From NCBI GenBank assembly GCA_031385555.1, contig JANNBP010000285.1, forward strand, positions 1-43,023: a stretch of 43,023 nucleotides of DNA, read 5' to 3'. Below, one piece after another: positions 6,262 to 19,545 of this stretch (position 1 is its first letter; every line of letters begins with the position of its first letter). Under the pieces are notes generated by a model. That model worked only from the letters and a program-made list of their open reading frames with translations. It had not been told where the DNA came from and ran no database searches. The stretch is from Deltaproteobacteria bacterium (lineage in GTDB: Bacteria > Myxococcota_A > Polyangia > Haliangiales > Haliangiaceae). The translations under genes and the position numbers were made by a program.

Positions 6262-7053
6262 CTACCGCAAGATCCGCGTCAACGTGACATCGACCTGGCT
6301 CTGGACCGCACGCACCACGCTGTCGAGCTCGGCGGGAGGCAGCGCGAGGTCGGCGGCGAGCAACTCGCGGGTGCGCTCGCCGAGCGTGTCGCGAATCGCC
6401 TCGAGCCAGCGTGCTGCGGTCGCGCGATGGACCTTGTAGAGCGCGCCGATGTCGTCGATGGACGAGCCCTCCAGCACGTGGAGCTTGAGCAGCGTGCGGT
6501 CGCGTGGGGTGAGCTCCTCGATCGCGCGCTCGAACGCGGACTCGAAGTGCTTGCGGTAGCGCTGCTTCACGAGCTCGAGCTCCGGTGCCACGGCGCTCGC
6601 CAGCATCGCGGCCGTCTCCGCGCCCGCCTCCATCGGCACCTCGCGTCCGACCTTGCGCTGCAGGCTGATCGCCGTCCGCACCGAGATCACGCGCACGAGG
6701 CCCTCGAACGTGCCCTGTCCTGCGTAGCGCGTGAGCTTCGGGGACTCGCCGTCACCTACGACGAACAGCTTGGTGCGGACGAGCTGGAGCACGTCCTCGA
6801 TCGTGCTCGCGGACAACTTCATCGGCGAGAGCGCCGGCCCGATCGCCGGGAAGTACAGGGCCTCGAAGCGCGCGAACGCGGCCGGATCGCCGGCCTCACA
6901 CGCACACGCGAGATAGAGCTCGCCGGCATCGAGAGCACCCCCGGCTCCGCTCAGCTTCTGCGTGACGATCCTGGCGAACACGTCGCGATCGAGGTCAAGC
7001 CCCGGGTGGCGCTGACGACCCTGCTCGTAGAGCTCCGCGACAGTCTCGCTCAT
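6262..7053 (-). CDS. ECF-type sigma-70 family sigma factor
   Basis: A C-terminal region-4 HTH is present (LTPRDRTLLKLHVLEGSSIDDIGALYKVHRATAARWLEAIRDTL). The N-terminal region-2-like segment contains YLACACEAGDPAAF. The start is taken at MSETVAELYEQ, and the upstream Met at 7077 is also possible. Confidence 0.7.
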   Translation of the reverse strand: MSETVAELYEQGRQRHPGLDLDRDVFARIVTQKLSGAGGALDAGELYLACACEAGDPAAFARFEALYFPAIGPALSPMKLSASTIEDVLQLVRTKLFVVGDGESPKLTRYAGQGTFEGLVRVISVRTAISLQRKVGREVPMEAGAETAAMLASAVAPELELVKQRYRKHFESAFERAIEELTPRDRTLLKLHVLEGSSIDDIGALYKVHRATAARWLEAIRDTLGERTRELLAADLALPPAELDSVVRAVQSQVDVTLTRILR

Positions 7054-7104
7054 CAGGCGAACGTAGCAGCGGCGCACCGCGCGACGATCGTAGACTGCAC
7101 GATA

Positions 7105-9939
7105 GTGCGACCGTGCTTCGACGACCTGGCCCTGCTCGGGCTCGTGACCGGTTCCTCGGCCGCGTCACCTGCAGCCGAGGAGCATCTCGCGGAGTGCGAG
7201 ATGTGCCGCGCCGCGGTCGCGATCCTGATCCGTGCAGGTCACTCCGCGAGGCCGGAGGCGCTCTTCCCTCCACGTTTCCCACCGGGCACGCGGATCGGTC
7301 GCTACGAGGTGCGCGAGCACCTCGGCAGTGGTGGGATGGGTGTCGTGTACGCCGCACGCGATCCCAAGCTCGATCGCACGGTCGCACTCAAGATCGTGCG
7401 TGCACCTCGGCTCGCGGACCGCTCGTTGCGCGAGGCGCAGGCGATGGCGCGGCTCGCCCACCCGAACGTGGTTGCCGTACACGACGTCATCACCCAGGAC
7501 GACGAGCTGGTGATCGTCCTCGAGCTCGTCCCCGGCCTCACGCTCACGCAGTGGCTCACCCGGCCACGCACGTGGCGCGAGATCGTCGACGCCTTCGTGC
7601 AAGCAGCGCGGGGGCTCGACGCAGCGCACGTCGCGGGGCTCGTCCACCGTGACTTCAAGCCGTCGAACGTGTTCGTACGCGACGATGGCGGCCGCGTCCA
7701 GGTCGGCGACTTTGGCCTCGCGCGCCTGATCATCGCGCCCCCCGAGATCGTCGACGACAACCGCAGCGAGCCGAGCTCGACGATCACGCAGGAGGGAGTG
7801 CTGGTCGGGACACCGCACTACATGGCCCCCGAGCAGAGGTCCGGCATCAGCGACGAGCGCAGTGACCAGTACGCGTTCGCGATCGCGCTTCGAGAGGCGC
7901 TCGCCGAGGCGACGGACGCCGCGCTCGTACCGCGCGACCTCGAGAACGCCGTCGCACGCGCGAGCTCGCACGACCCGGTGGACCGATTTCGGAGCATGGG
8001 CGCGCTCGAGGCCGCGCTTGCAGCCGTCCGGACGCCACGACGCAGCCGGGGCAGGCTCGTCGCCGCCGTGGCGCTCGTCGGCCTCGCGCTGGGCGGTGTC
8101 GTCTATCTTCTCCCGAGCGCGCGGAGCGCCTCACCGGCGCCGCCGGAGCACGTCGTCGCGATGTTGCCGTTTGTGGATCACACGAAGGAGACCGAGCTCG
8201 ACTTCACGCATGTCGGGCTACCCCGCCTGCTCGGCACCGAGCTTCAGCGTGCCGGGCTTCGCGTGATCGGGACGTACGAGCTCCGCGATCGAGCCGCCGA
8301 TCCACCGGCGAACGACGACGTCGTCGCATGGCGCGAGCTCGCCGCGACTTCCGGCGCAGATCTCACGGTGTCGGGTTCGCTCACCAGCGATGGTCGCGAC
8401 GTCGTCGTGGCATTCGCACTCGCACGGATCGACGGGCTGCCGCTCGGGGTGTGGAGCGTTCGCGGCACACCGTCGAGAGTTCCGGATCTCGTCGGCGCGC
8501 AGGCCGGGAGCGTCGTCGCCGCCACCGGTCACGTGGCAGCGGTAGCCAGCGCCCCCCGCGACTTCGCCGTCGAGCGGGATCTGTCGCTCGCGATCGACGC
8601 GTTCCAGCAGCTCCAGCTCGCTGCGTCGCGCACGCTGCTCGAGAGCGTGCTCCGCCGCGAGCCGCAGCGAGCCGAGGCGCTGTACTACGCCGCGCTCGTC
8701 GTCTGGTGGAACAACGAGGCCGAGCAGGTGATCCAGCTCGCCGGCGAGCGAGCGCTCGCATCTAGCCTGCTCCCCGAGCAACGCGGCGTCATCTCCGCCC
8801 TGGTCTCGCTCGTGGCCGGCGACCGCGATCGTGCGATCGAGCAGCTGCGGCGACTCGAGGAGCAGTTTCCGACGAGCTCGCACGTCCGGTACCTCCTCAG
8901 CGAAGCGCTGTTCCACGGCGGCTATCCTGCAGAGGGCATCGCGGTGTATCGCCAGCTCACCGAGCTCGCGCCCCGCTGGCACCTCGCGCTCGTCCACCCG
9001 CTGACCTACTACGCCGTGCACCGCGACGACGCCGGCATGCGATGGGCGGTCGCGCGGCTGCCGCTCCTCGACGAGCCCACCGCCGTGGTCTGGCGGCATC
9101 GCGACGAGATCATGCGCGGCGATCTCCGAGGCGCGTTCCGGACCATGCTCGTCGAGCGCGACGCCGCCCGCGGGCGGGGCGAGCCCTACCTCGGGGAGAT
9201 CGACCTGGTCTCTCTCGCGATGGTACTCGACGACGACGCCTCGCTCGACGCGACCGCGCGTGCGATCCCTGTCGTCAGCTTCGCGCTCGCGCTGCGCCGC
9301 GGTGATCTCGAGGCCGCGCATGCGGCGTTCGGCGTGATGCTGGAGGCGCGCGCGACCGATCGCCAGTACCGGTTCACGCTCACCCACGCCCTGCCGCTGG
9401 TGGTGGTCTCCGGAGACACCGTCCTGATCGAGCGCGCCGTGCGCCTACTCGACGTGGCGATCGGCAGCTCGCGTCCGAGCATCGACGAACAGCTCGGGCG
9501 CCTGGTTCTTCGCGGGGCGCCAGCGAGCGAGCTCGGATCGTCGATTCCCGAGGTGGTGACACTCGCACGGGCGATGTCGAGCCGCTCGCCAGACCCCGCG
9601 TTGTGGCGGCGCGCGTTCGAGCTGTCTTCCGATGGCCTGTTCGTCGTCGCCGGGCGCTTCCAGCTCGCGCGTGCGTTGGCTGCAGCCGGTGATCACGCGG
9701 GCGTCATCTTGCAGTGCAAGCCGATCCTGAGCCCGCACTATCTCGATCTCGCGTTCGGCGCTGCGATCCCGGCTTGCCTCGCGTGGACGGCCGCTGCCCA
9801 CGAGGCGCTTGGCCAGCGCGACGCCGCGCTCGTCGCCTATCGTCGCCTCACCGCGATCCGCACCGCATCCGACGCGCTTCATGTCCGTGCGGTCGCCGGC
9901 ATCGCGCGGCTCGCCGTCACGGCACCGTCGTCCCCTTGA
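7105..9939 (+). CDS. Ser/Thr protein kinase with an N-terminal zf-HC2 anti-sigma-like domain and a C-terminal TPR-like region
   Basis: GTG start gives MRPCFDDLALLGL...EEHLAECEMCRAAV, an HxxxCxxC anti-sigma zinc motif. Hanks kinase motifs are present: GSGGMGVVY, VALK, HRDFKPSNV, DFGLAR, APE. A TM segment (LVAAVALVGLALGGVVYLL) is followed by ~600 aa of helical-repeat region. Confidence 0.85.
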   Translation: MRPCFDDLALLGLVTGSSAASPAAEEHLAECEMCRAAVAILIRAGHSARPEALFPPRFPPGTRIGRYEVREHLGSGGMGVVYAARDPKLDRTVALKIVRAPRLADRSLREAQAMARLAHPNVVAVHDVITQDDELVIVLELVPGLTLTQWLTRPRTWREIVDAFVQAARGLDAAHVAGLVHRDFKPSNVFVRDDGGRVQVGDFGLARLIIAPPEIVDDNRSEPSSTITQEGVLVGTPHYMAPEQRSGISDERSDQYAFAIALREALAEATDAALVPRDLENAVARASSHDPVDRFRSMGALEAALAAVRTPRRSRGRLVAAVALVGLALGGVVYLLPSARSASPAPPEHVVAMLPFVDHTKETELDFTHVGLPRLLGTELQRAGLRVIGTYELRDRAADPPANDDVVAWRELAATSGADLTVSGSLTSDGRDVVVAFALARIDGLPLGVWSVRGTPSRVPDLVGAQAGSVVAATGHVAAVASAPRDFAVERDLSLAIDAFQQLQLAASRTLLESVLRREPQRAEALYYAALVVWWNNEAEQVIQLAGERALASSLLPEQRGVISALVSLVAGDRDRAIEQLRRLEEQFPTSSHVRYLLSEALFHGGYPAEGIAVYRQLTELAPRWHLALVHPLTYYAVHRDDAGMRWAVARLPLLDEPTAVVWRHRDEIMRGDLRGAFRTMLVERDAARGRGEPYLGEIDLVSLAMVLDDDASLDATARAIPVVSFALALRRGDLEAAHAAFGVMLEARATDRQYRFTLTHALPLVVVSGDTVLIERAVRLLDVAIGSSRPSIDEQLGRLVLRGAPASELGSSIPEVVTLARAMSSRSPDPALWRRAFELSSDGLFVVAGRFQLARALAAAGDHAGVILQCKPILSPHYLDLAFGAAIPACLAWTAAAHEALGQRDAALVAYRRLTAIRTASDALHVRAVAGIARLAVTAPSSP

Positions 9940-12467: not shown

Positions 12468-13271
12468 TTACGTCCACGCAGGGACGCCGGGAACGATCAG
12501 GCGGGAGACATCGACGTCGACGTTGAAATACTGCAGTAGCGCTGCCTGCAGCTCCGCGCGATCCGCGAGCGGGCGAGCCACGCCGTCGACGGTGAGCTGG
12601 TCGTTCAACAGCCGCACCGTGTCGCCACCGACGAACATCCGCAGCATCAGCTTGTCGAGGAAGTGCGACTGCGGATAGGTCGCCGTGTAGTGGTTCGCCA
12701 TCACGAAGTCGATCGGATGGTCGACCGCCATCGGCGTCACCCACGCGTCGATCACCGCATCGGGAGTGCGGACCTTGAGTGTCCACTCGCCGCCATCGAT
12801 CGACCGCTCGAGCCAATACGTCATCTCCTTCGCCGCTCCTGGACGGGCAGTCACCTCGGTACCGTCGAGCGGGACCGGCACCATCGGCGCGAGGCTACCG
12901 AAGCCGGGGTCGAGCGCGAAGCCACCTTCGGGCAGCTCGACCGTGAGGAGCATGTGCGTGCGTGGGGCTCGCTCCTTCGGCGTGTCGACGGTGACGCGCG
13001 CGGAGTGACGCAGGACGGTGAAGCCGAGCCGCTCGAGCACCGCATGGAACAGCGTCGCCTGCTCGAAGCAGTAGCCGCCGCTCCTGCGATCGATCAGCTT
13101 GGCCTGGAGGTCCGCGAGCGCGAGGGACGGCGGGCGGTGGAGCAGGACGTCGAGGTTCTCGAACGGGATGGCGGTCATGTGCGCGTGGAGCAAGCCGCGC
13201 AGCGTCGTCAGCGTGGGCGACACCGGCTCGGTCCAGCCGATCCTCTCGAAGTAGCGATCGAGGTCGATCAT
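12468..13271 (-). CDS. Arylamine N-acetyltransferase (NAT family)
   Basis: The true start is the internal MIDLDRYFERIGW. The NAT signature PFENLDV and the catalytic-Cys block GGYCFEQATLFHAVLERLGF are present. It overlaps the upstream GNAT gene stop by 4 bp. Confidence 0.85.
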   Translation of the reverse strand: MIDLDRYFERIGWTEPVSPTLTTLRGLLHAHMTAIPFENLDVLLHRPPSLALADLQAKLIDRRSGGYCFEQATLFHAVLERLGFTVLRHSARVTVDTPKERAPRTHMLLTVELPEGGFALDPGFGSLAPMVPVPLDGTEVTARPGAAKEMTYWLERSIDGGEWTLKVRTPDAVIDAWVTPMAVDHPIDFVMANHYTATYPQSHFLDKLMLRMFVGGDTVRLLNDQLTVDGVARPLADRAELQAALLQYFNVDVDVSRLIVPGVPAWT

Positions 13272-17779: not shown

Positions 17780-17825
17780 AAAATATTCCGTGACGATCGT
17801 GCGCAGCGGGACGACAGTCTCCCGC

Positions 17826-18209
17826 ATGCGCACGATTCTCGTTTCGGTGGTGTTGTCGTTGTCCGTCCCAGCCTTCGCGGATGCCCCGAAGGAGAAGCCC
17901 ACGGCACCGGCGAAGGTAGAAGACAAGTTCCCGATCCCGAAGGACGCCACCGGCGGTGAGGCGGCCCCGGGCGGCGGCGGCAAGATCCTGATGTACAAGG
18001 TGCCGCGCGGCAAGACGGTCGTCGCGGCCGAGGTCAAGGAGTCGCTGACCAAGGGCGGCTGGAAGATCACCAACGACGGTACAGCGTCACCGTCGGGTCG
18101 CTCGATCCGCGTCGAGGTGACATCGAAGAGCGGCAAGCTCTACAAGGTCAGCTTCACGGGCGTCGACGACAAGGAGAGCGCGATCATCCTGACGCTGCCC
18201 TCGCTCTAG
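17826..18209 (+). CDS. Small secreted protein, unknown function
   Basis: Internal Met with signal peptide (MRTILVSVVLSLSVPAFA). 127 aa, Lys/Gly-rich, high GC3. Confidence 0.5.
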   Translation: MRTILVSVVLSLSVPAFADAPKEKPTAPAKVEDKFPIPKDATGGEAAPGGGGKILMYKVPRGKTVVAAEVKESLTKGGWKITNDGTASPSGRSIRVEVTSKSGKLYKVSFTGVDDKESAIILTLPSL

Positions 18210-18216
18210 TGCCTAT

Positions 18217-18413
18217 CGGGGACAGGATCTACCCCTCCATCCTGTCGGGATTACACAGCTTCTGGACGCAAACGTAAAATCGCAATGTCCGGATCCCGGA
18301 CGACGAACCGATTTTACGTTCGTGTCTAAACCACGAATGATCTCGCCAGCCTGCGGGGGTAGATCCTGTCCCCGATCAACGAGCGGGGGAAATCCTGTCC
18401 CCGATCAACGAGC
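18217..18413. repeat. MITE-like or operator-like element. It has perfect 19-bp terminal inverted repeats, a nested inner palindrome, and a duplicated 22-mer.
   Basis: cggggacaggatctacccc (18217-18235) is the exact reverse complement of ggggtagatcctgtccccg (18356-18374). Inner IR: aacgtaaaatcg (18271-18282) pairs with cgattttacgtt (18309-18320) around the palindrome gtccggatcccggac. atcctgtccccgatcaacgagc occurs twice (18363-18384, 18392-18413). Local GC is ~50% against ~70% in the flanks. Confidence 0.5.
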
Positions 18414-18579
18414 TTGTGTAGTGCCGGCGTTGCGGAAGCCGGATCGGATCGCGGTGCTGTTGCTGCAGCTCTCGATCGAGAGCTCGCGCAGGAACACGAG
18501 CGCGCGCGCGAGGTTGTCGACGCTGCAGTTCGCGCCGAACAGACATGACAGGTTCGCGTCAGGTTTCGTAGGCTGCAGC

Positions 18580-19545
18580 ATGCGCGCCCTCGCACTCCTC
18601 GCGGTCACCGGTTGCGTGACCTCGATCCATCCGCGCGGCGGCACGCTCGAGACCACGCCGCCTCGGTTCGAGGCGAGCTCGCAGCTCGGCACGTTCTCGC
18701 TGAGCGAGGCGCTTTCGCAGGGCCACGTCGCGATCGTGTTCTATCGCGGCTTCTGGTGACCCTGGTGCAAGCACCAGCTCGGTGAGCTGGCCCGGGTCGC
18801 GAAGAGTGGAGCGTTTCGCCAGCGTGGGGTGACGCTGGTCGCCATCTCGCGCGATGACGTCGACGACTCGCGCAGCTTCGCGCGCGACTACGGCATCGAG
18901 TTCCCCTTGATCAGCGATCTCGACGGCGCGATCTCGAAGGCGCTCGTCGGGATCGACGACCAGGATCACTCGATCCCCGGCGTCGTCGTGATCCGGCGCG
19001 ACGGCGTGATCGCGTTCCGTCAGATCGCGAAATCGAAGGACGATCGGCTGACCGCGCGCGCGCTGCTCGAGGCGATCGATCGCAGCCTCGGCACCTCGGG
19101 CGAGCTCGCCCGGACGCGACATCCCGCGCTTGAACGGGCGCAGCTGCGCCTCGAGACCGGTGGAGGGCAGGTACGGATCGAGGATCGGTGGCAGGCGACC
19201 GGCGTCTCGAGGTTCGGCATCCTGATCCCGCTGCAGCGCTATCTGTTCGCAGGCGCCGCGATCGCGAGCGAGTACCGGGAGGCGCGGCTGTCGCTTCAGG
19301 GATCGATCGGCGTGCGCGTCCCGATCCTCGCCGACCTCGCCGCGATCCAGCTCTCCGGTGAGGCCGGGTTGCCGATCAGCGCACCGGGCGTCTACGCAGG
19401 CCTGAGGCTCGGGCTCTGGTTCGCGTGGACGCCGCGCTGGGCCGTGAACCTCGACGGCACCTTCGGCGTGCACGATGCCGGCCGCGTCGATGCGCTGCCA
19501 GGCTGGTCGGCATCACTGGGCGTCGCGCGCTTGCTCGGTCGCTAG
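18580..19545 (+). CDS. Candidate selenoprotein: a lipoprotein peroxiredoxin-like (AhpC/TSA / redoxin fold) protein with an in-frame UGA (Sec) at 18757-18759 and a C-terminal ~200-aa extension
   Basis: ORFs 18322-18759 and 18829-19545 are in the same frame, separated only by a TGA, with no other stop. Read-through gives AIVFYRGFW-U-PWCKHQLGEL...GVTLVAISRDD...FARDYGIEFPLISDLDG...VVVIRRDGVIAF. This is the Prx/redoxin FYRGxWCPxC-...-FPLLSD-...-DG pattern with U at the first (peroxidatic) Cys. The start at 18580 gives a signal peptide plus lipobox (MRALALLAVTGC). Confidence 0.6.
18760..18780 (+). other. Candidate bacterial SECIS-like stem-loop immediately 3' of the in-frame UGA
   Basis: ctggtg caag caccag (18762-18777) forms a perfect 6-7 bp stem with a G-containing apical loop, starting 3 nt after the TGA. 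A second hairpin, gcgaa-N11-ttcgc, lies at 18799-18819. Confidence 0.35.

Follow-up and report, generated by a model that had tools for sequence, protein, structure and literature searches.

What is the strongly palindromic, low-GC island that lies between a small open reading frame (ORF) and a redoxin (AhpC/TSA) selenoprotein gene on contig JANNBP010000285.1 of the Haliangiaceae assembly GCA_031385555.1? A first-pass annotation of this 43,023-nucleotide stretch, hereafter the window, had offered three explanations, i.e. a miniature inverted-repeat transposable element (MITE) or small insertion sequence (IS) remnant, a long structured RNA, or a multi-site operator of the redoxin gene. We found that the island (approximately positions 18202–18413) is composed of two inverted arms of ~68 nt belonging to a dispersed repeat family, together with a partial tandem copy of one end. 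We interpret it, with a probability of roughly 80%, as a REPIN-like, non-autonomous mobile element associated with a tyrosine transposase of the RAYT (REP-associated tyrosine transposase) type, in other words as a part of something that works like, and probably is, a REPIN-RAYT system. In such systems doublets of repetitive extragenic palindromic (REP) sequences form hairpins (REPINs) and are accompanied by a RAYT, as known from Pseudomonas, Enterobacteria and Neisseria (PMC3116915; PMC5581495; bioRxiv 10.1101/2021.07.10.451892). The element is not a dedicated redoxin regulator.

Structure of the window element

Positions 18215–18376 form an imperfect palindrome of 162 nt, the longest inverted repeat of the window, in which two 68-nt arms that are 75% complementary are separated by 26 nt. 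The palindrome is bounded by a perfect terminal inverted repeat of 21 bp (ATCGGGGACAGGATCTACCCC / GGGGTAGATCCTGTCCCCGAT, 18215–18235 / 18356–18376), so that the perfect repeats reported by the first-pass annotation are real but were measured short, at 19 bp. Likewise, the tandem 22-mer that it described on the right is present but is part of a 29-bp duplication of the right end (18356–18384 / 18385–18413, 93% identical). All the strings that it quoted were recovered in place (CGGGGACAGGATCTACCCC at 18217 and its reverse complement at 18356; AACGTAAAATCG at 18271; CGATTTTACGTT at 18309; GTCCGGATCCCGGAC at 18287; and the 22-mer at 18363 and 18392), the inner repeat AACGTAAAATCG / CGATTTTACGTT enclosing the small palindrome GTCCGGATCCCGGAC. 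The motif GGGGACAGGAT occurs three times in the window, as had been claimed, with every copy inside the element (chance expectation 0.63), and these three apparent sites are both element ends plus the one partially duplicated end.

The GC content of the element core (52.5%, against 66.6% for the window) agrees with the ~50% first estimated. The proposed check by RNA folding was borne out on both strands (z = −8.9 on the plus and −6.1 on the minus strand, no shuffled sequence folding as well), and the single-stranded DNA (ssDNA) fold of the element was similarly extreme (z = −8.5; no shuffle as good). The element is preceded by the stop codon (18207–18209) of a 139-aa ORF and followed, 166 nt downstream, by the redoxin ATG (18580).

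A dispersed family of hairpin repeats

When species-representative genomes were scanned with a 21-mer that includes the outer ATC, three single matches were obtained, approximately the chance level; one of these, in the Haliangiales metagenome-assembled genome (MAG) L004, shares 25 nt directly after a stop codon and is a diverged full-length copy of the element. The 18-mer GGGGACAGGATCTACCCC was found on 101 contigs of the JGI metagenomes scanned. Similarity among these contigs reaches far past the 18-mer, and 83 of the 101 match a whole-element profile at E < 1e-5, yielding 108 elements, so that the element is multi-copy across contigs; the first-pass annotation had looked to multiple copies in the genome as the mark of a MITE. 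The family ends are GGGGACAGGATC...GATCCTGTCCCC and the commonest element length is 143 bp; among 78 end pairs lying 60–260 bp apart, 47 fall at 140–149 bp. The family consensus reads GGGGACAGGATCTACCCC-YGYAA-...-TTCTGG-N4-AAACGCGCATTT-(loop)-AAATGCGCGTTT-...-GGACCCCGGATCCTGTCCCC.

Family copies adjoin unrelated genes in both orientations, often after stop codons, and abut stop as well as start codons. Tandem duplication of flank plus element is common (L013, L017, L043, L058, L063 and L108). The 18-mer GGGGACAGGATCTACCCC had no match in 2.9 million viral contigs, and the element was absent from the plasmid and phage collections scanned. The family is a widespread set of ~143-bp intergenic hairpin repeats in myxobacteria, i.e. 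in Haliangiales/Kofleriaceae-like Myxococcota. The window copy represents a subfamily with GATC before GGGG, often with a CTACCCC-type end on both sides, and with an outer extension GCNCTTGNNGATC / GATCNNCAAGNGC; it shares its inner stem (AAACGTAAAA-CG / CGATTTTACGTT) with the copy on L068. Several members of this subfamily derive from sample Ga0075163, also the source of the contig (L005) whose redoxin is nearest to that of the window among the seven orthologous loci considered below (90%).

The ends and the hairpin are both conserved. When 42 distinct elements are aligned, the 18 columns at the start and the 11 at the end are invariant, while the inner stem varies between subfamilies yet stays complementary, 11 of 25 consensus pairs showing double compensatory changes (at most 14 sequences per pair; e.g. 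AAACGCGCATTT/AAATGCGCGTTT, AAACGTAAAATCG/CGATTTTACGTT and AAATGACAA/TTGTCATTT). The ssDNA fold of a typical 143-bp copy has z = −6.1. The palindrome is being kept, whether by selection or by conversion.

No systematic target-site duplication was seen in 56 distinct elements, the direct repeats at their flanks being no longer than those of shuffled-pair controls; an excess of abutting CG dinucleotides at the flanks is palindrome extension. A few copies depart from this, with a long duplication of the flank on occasion (L087, 18 nt) and with the 7-nt TAGTGCC in the window.

Some copies have settings of their own. Two tandem elements on L013 (3812–4120 and 4135–4510) lie immediately 3′ of an RNase P RNA gene (Rfam RF00010, 294 bits). 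Others (L087 1171–1357; L058 2398–2716; L108 4071–4389) lie in part between convergent genes whose overlapping ends recur on each side, and in part in tandemly duplicated units of flank plus element; on L087 the duplicated 18 nt (GCTCGCCACTCAGCGCTC) leave both genes with intact 3′ ends, and on L058 the duplicated coding flank of 24 nt differs at synonymous positions only. ORFs that run into an element end gain a ...GTGSTP... tail and a stop codon (L085 ~12669–12705, where an S9 peptidase ends in HLLGTGSTPRTR plus stop; and two ORFs on L036, ~7035–7065 and 7886–7916), and the ORF upstream of the window element similarly gains SL plus stop. The inner motif of the main subfamily, CTGGCAC-N5-GCGCA (e.g. 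L108 4115–4135), has a GG/GC spacing like that of a sigma-54 −24/−12 promoter; the corresponding sequence of the window copy (18263–18283, TGGACG-CAAAC-GTAA) has no −12 GC.

A transposase gene bounded by the same ends

Six of the motif loci (L036, L070, L085, L100, L103 and L110) carry the same ends in inverted orientation, 820–940 bp apart, around a single ORF of 216–262 aa. The enclosed proteins match Pfam Y1_Tnp (IS200-like; E = 4e-12 to 8e-5), and their alignment retains HHxxLRGNNRRxLF, the HUH motif NHVH, RYAQxRN, GKLxEER and the tyrosine motif YxDxNxxRAG, with NHVH and Y.D.N..RAG invariant among the transposases aligned. A 231-aa homologue in the Kofleriaceae MAG L114 is also enclosed by GGGGACAGGATC ends (with flanks GGGGACAGGATCCGGGGG and its complement), and a homologue in the Myxococcales MAG L113 (42% identity) is flanked by several copies of a co-varied end, GGGGACAGGCTC. 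The 18-nt end is identical although the transposases are only 41–47% identical to each other. Among the motif loci, short elements outnumber transposase-bearing units by more than 10:1 (108 profile matches on 84 loci versus six units).

The transposase gene is flanked by leuS and mglA on L103 and L110 (74% identity), and by genes for an S9 peptidase and a TtcA-like protein on L085, L070, L100 and L113 (61% identity between L085 and L100). Retention of the same neighbours at 61–74% protein identity fits vertical inheritance at a fixed locus. With a profile search, no fewer than 2,701 homologues were recovered (E ≤ 1e-20); only a few carried a source name, namely 'transposase [Kofleriaceae bacterium]', '[Myxococcales bacterium]', '[Gemmatimonadaceae bacterium]' and one 'REP-associated tyrosine transposase'. 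Plasmids seldom carry a homologue (22 of 72,556 records, none reaching 45% identity). On L103 (2250–2897) the RAYT-like gene flanked by leuS and mglA is broken by a stop codon, which leaves a 132-aa ORF, and may be a decaying copy; its ortholog on L110 is intact.

We infer mobilisation by the Y1/HUH enzyme in trans, on ssDNA, from the established biochemistry of HUH Y1 transposases. A chromosomal transposase of the RAYT type, itself flanked by the same ends, would recognise the conserved ends and the hairpin on ssDNA, e.g. at a replication fork, and by cutting and rejoining without target duplication would copy the hairpin into new extragenic sites.

The locus in related genomes

The redoxin has 23 clear orthologs (42–95% identity), and seven orthologous loci (L005–L011, redoxin 65–90% identical) were compared with the window. 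The motif GGGGACAGGAT is absent from all seven, and the family profile had no match in the 42 kb that they comprise. Six of them have a conserved gene of 151–152 aa on the minus strand (MGKIGFWQLLLDD...CERCP) in the interval before the redoxin gene; L008 starts too near the redoxin gene to show it, and on L005 the contig end leaves the first 102 codons only. On L006, L007, L010 and L011 the stop codon of this gene abuts or overlaps that of the small upstream ORF. Homology of the window to these loci ends at 18201, reappears as a 38-nt remnant at 18486–18523 and resumes from 18528. Judged from these alignments, 18202–18485 is lineage-specific DNA in place of most of a conserved gene, of which the window holds no second copy. 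The upstream ORF reads ...ILTLPSL-stop in the window and ...ILTLP-stop in the orthologs, its present stop codon coming from the new DNA. The features of the region are as follows.

17790–18209, plus strand: upstream 139-aa ORF; its final two codons and stop (18202–18209, ...SL-stop) derive from inserted DNA, as the orthologs in the comparison end ...ILTLP-stop and DNA homology to L006 stops at 18201
18202–18214: left junction, the first DNA without counterpart in the orthologous loci (blastn breakpoint); holds the new stop codon and the left TAGTGCC (18207–18213)
18215–18282, plus strand: left arm, from the family end ATC-GGGGACAGGATCTACCCC to the inner-stem half AACGTAAAATCG; aligns to the left half of the family consensus
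18283–18308: central spacer or loop, containing the small palindrome GTCCGGATCCCGGAC (18287–18301)
18309–18376, minus strand: right arm, an inverted copy of the left arm from CGATTTTACGTT to GGGGTAGATCCTGTCCCC-GAT; the family profile covers 18218–18373 (E = 8.8e-24)
18374–18384: GATCAACGAGC, a subfamily-specific extension of the right end; the same 11 nt follow the element on contig L047
18385–18413, minus strand: partial third copy, the terminal 29 nt of the right end duplicated in tandem (GGGGGAAATCCTGTCCCCGATCAACGAGC; 93% identity)
18414–18485: 72 nt of lineage-specific DNA, including the right TAGTGCC (18419–18425); matched only by L001 among the fetched loci
18486–18523, minus strand: remnant of the 151-aa gene (MGKIGFWQLLLDD...CERCP), 86.8% identical to L005 123–160 (E = 1.6e-7) and 85.7% to L009, colinear and in the same orientation
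18528–18579, plus strand: conserved, ancestral upstream region of the redoxin gene; 80.5% identity to L009 over 18528–18603 (E = 9e-14), with L006 matching 18549–18603
18580–19545, plus strand: redoxin (AhpC/TSA) gene with an in-frame TGA at 18757–18759 (FW-U-PWC), split by gene callers at the same codon in the orthologs; neighbour of the element and outside it

We further infer an order of events in which the element would have inserted at the former abutment of two convergent genes, with loss of most of the 151-aa gene, so that the insertion would now provide the last two codons and the stop of the upstream ORF. If the element affects neighbouring transcripts at all, e.g. through a stable hairpin at the 3′ end of the upstream mRNA, this would be a side effect.

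The 7-bp direct repeat TAGTGCC (18207–18213 and 18419–18425) brackets the entire insertion; as the family overall shows no target duplication, this pair may be due to chance or to rearrangement microhomology. The 151–152 aa protein (L006 4236–4691; L010 3705–4163) has a zinc-ribbon-like CxxC...CxxC arrangement at its C-terminus and had no Pfam match.

Alternative interpretations

It is highly improbable that the element is a cis-regulator of the redoxin gene, whether as a multi-site operator whose regulator binds the GGGGACAGGAT boxes or as a small RNA or structured leader. Such a role would suit its position 166 nt upstream of the start codon, its three boxes, its very stable fold and one sigma-70-like promoter match (18252–18280, TACACA-17-TAAAAT). 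However, the box is absent from the seven orthologous loci, a protein-coding gene occupying its position in the six that cover it; the conserved upstream segment of the redoxin gene (18528–18579) lies outside the element; and family copies, in either orientation, have unrelated genes as neighbours, among them an RNase P RNA gene. The covariance search recommended by the first-pass annotation, run with Rfam on the window and 12 family loci, gave no match for the element at gathering thresholds and chance-level hairpin matches only at permissive ones (E up to 10). Neither a redoxin-specific RNA nor the operator that it had proposed is supported, and the lineage-specificity of 18202–18485 excludes a conserved redoxin operator or leader. 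A fortuitous local palindrome, produced by a one-off inverted duplication when the 151-aa gene was deleted, might be suspected from the single occurrence of the element in the window and from its rearranged site, but its probability is practically nil, both arms aligning over their full length to a family on 83 other contigs (E = 8.8e-24 to the profile), which already refutes it.

A classical MITE, moved by a DDE transposase that recognises the 12–21 bp terminal inverted repeats, is very unlikely. The perfect terminal inverted repeats, the size of 130–160 bp and the 7-bp TAGTGCC around the window copy would accord with it, but the flank repeats of 56 elements remain at the level of shuffled-pair controls, and the longer units with these ends encode Y1/HUH proteins only, no DDE gene being seen between the ends. 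The original MITE or IS-remnant proposal is in essence right, the element being multi-copy, dispersed and absent at the orthologous site; the kind of element differs, since the Y1/HUH partner and the absence of target-site duplication make it REPIN-like rather than a classical MITE. We also regard as unlikely that it is the miniature, in the manner of palindrome-associated transposable elements (PATEs) or MITEs, of a still-selfish IS200/IS605-type IS whose transposase has not been domesticated and which spreads and dies like ordinary ISs. The full-length units do resemble compact ISs (~820–940 bp, two inverted ends and one Y1 transposase ORF), their proteins score under the RAYT equivalog cutoff, and the L103 copy is stop-interrupted, as is frequent in decaying ISs. 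Against this, the transposase lies between the same neighbours at 61–74% identity, in keeping with vertical inheritance, short elements exceed transposase-bearing units by more than 10:1 in the fetched loci, no copy was found in the plasmid, phage or viral collections, and classical IS200/IS605 ends are not inverted repeats.

Other candidates were dropped from the sequence, i.e. a tRNA 3′ end or att site, an integron attC, a CRISPR repeat, a dif site and a retron msd, of which the consensus features or the partner (reverse transcriptase, spacers) are missing, the family evidence also explaining the element. A Tn3-type 38-bp inverted repeat (GGGG start, 5-bp duplication) was rejected as the flanks CTATC and GATCA do not match.

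Several observations weigh against a REPIN-RAYT system. A perfect terminal inverted repeat of 12–21 bp is more typical of DDE-type MITEs, and the TAGTGCC (7 bp) that flanks the window copy can be read as a target duplication. The best NCBIfam match of the transposases, NF047646 'REP-associated tyrosine transposase', reaches 33–62 bits, under the curated cutoff of 80, and their best PDB match, E. coli TnpA-REP (4ER8), is weak (E = 0.003). No RAYT gene occurs in the 43-kb window and none was recovered on the contigs of its 'GATC' subfamily, so that the link between element and transposase rests on the shared ends. Arm-internal segments fold no better than shuffles (mean z = −0.5 and −0.1), and single arms are not significant palindromes; the structural unit is therefore the whole doublet. 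A GTAG (in GGG-GTAG-ATCC) is found in the CTACCCC-type end only, 11 nt from the terminus, with no stem-loop after it, and together with the non-palindromic arms this means that the units are not classical REPs. Selection on a hairpin is not the only source of compensatory changes in a DNA palindrome, since conversion between the arms can produce them too. Moreover, the loci were picked by an exact 18-mer, which biases them towards conserved ends and inflates their apparent conservation, and the family counts are of metagenome contigs, from which element and transposase copies per genome are not measurable.

Comparison with known systems and significance

The family has several features in common with REPIN-RAYT systems: short extragenic elements (~100–150 bp) that consist of two inverted arms, form a hairpin and are present many times over; a Y1/HUH transposase gene flanked on both sides by inverted copies of the repeat; a transposase locus kept across related genomes, here in two lineages; the lack of target duplication; and the absence from plasmids and phages. 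Its tandem clusters recall the bacterial interspersed mosaic elements (BIMEs) and REP clusters of E. coli, the extra 29-nt copy of the window being a partial tandem duplication. Unlike those systems, the host here belongs to the Myxococcota (Haliangiales/Kofleriaceae-like) and not to the Gammaproteobacteria; the transposases do not reach the NCBIfam RAYT cutoff and resemble E. coli TnpA-REP only remotely; single arms are ~65 nt long and not themselves palindromes, with no REP-style palindromic unit headed by GTAG or CGTC; the outermost 12 bp make up a perfect terminal inverted repeat; most copies combine two different types of arm (CTACCCC versus CCGGGGTC); and an 18-nt end is constant among transposases that are 41–47% identical.

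IS200/IS605 elements and PATEs are comparable in their Y1 HUH transposase, the DNA hairpins at their ends and the lack of target duplication. However, the ends of IS200/IS605 elements are hairpins in a subterminal position, directly oriented on one strand, whereas the present ends are terminal inverted repeats; those ISs are also multi-copy and found on plasmids, whereas the present gene seems to be fixed at conserved loci. Correia elements (NEMIS) of Neisseria and other MITEs are also intergenic, ~100–160 bp long, bounded by terminal inverted repeats and located near gene ends, form hairpins when transcribed and can supply promoters, terminators and coding tails; Correia elements differ in that their TA target is duplicated and no Y1 transposase is linked to them, whereas here there is no target duplication and the ends flank a RAYT-like gene.

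REPIN-RAYT systems have been discussed as long-lived, vertically inherited replicators, characterised nearly all in Gammaproteobacteria and Neisseria, and two RAYT groups, Groups 2 and 3 only, have been tied to REPINs (PMC5581495; bioRxiv 10.1101/2021.07.10.451892). The end sequence was not found in the literature searched, the coverage of which is incomplete so that this is absence of evidence only; no pairing of REP elements with myxobacterial names was found among the results listed there either, and two broad REP/HUH surveys make no mention of myxobacteria. The family and its host clade appear to be new, the kind of element being known. We put at about even the chances that this is a first sighting of a REPIN-RAYT-type system native to Myxococcota (Haliangiales/Kofleriaceae), with a RAYT lineage outside the curated equivalog and remote from the E. 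coli Group 2 enzyme, with an 18-nt end constant at ~45% enzyme identity, and with copies that settle exactly at gene ends, sometimes duplicating the overlap between convergent 3′ ends or donating stops and short C-terminal tails (...GTGSTP...), and here accompanying the loss of a conserved gene.

A clear pairing of repeat and transposase in the large-genome Myxococcota would widen the host range of REPIN-RAYT systems, and a second, independent lineage would help to test substrate recognition by RAYTs, because a 12–18 nt end is conserved while the inner stem varies. The family also explains low-GC palindromic intergenic islands that would otherwise be flagged as candidate RNAs or operators in the annotation of Myxococcota MAGs, and is a useful addition for REPIN researchers and for annotators of Myxococcota genomes alike. 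For the locus itself the result is deflationary, since the selenoprotein gene has had its upstream region remodelled by a mobile insertion and has not been given a regulator there.

Other features of the neighbourhood

A metagenome contig from ENA (L001; ERZ28573539, scaffold_5061) is a near-identical copy of the window (99.95% identity). Of seven differing positions in 13.5 kb, four (18011, 18017, 18415 and 18417) lie within ~200 nt either side of the element, two of the differences directly following its right end.

The TGA of the redoxin gene stands at the first Cys position of a CxxC and is followed by a short hairpin, CTGGTG-CAAG-CACCAG. The selenocysteine codon seems to be conserved across the clade, because every fetched ortholog (65–90% identity) is split by gene callers at the same place, into ORFs of 59–61 aa and 233–238 aa.

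A gene for an Hc1-type histone-like protein (PF07432; 21497–21850, plus strand) adjoins an OPT transporter gene, an adjacency kept on L005, L008 and L010. An 813-aa ORF (26542–28983, minus strand) matches Pfam MVP_shoulder and, faintly, Vault_3, i.e. a major-vault-protein-like gene in a bacterium.

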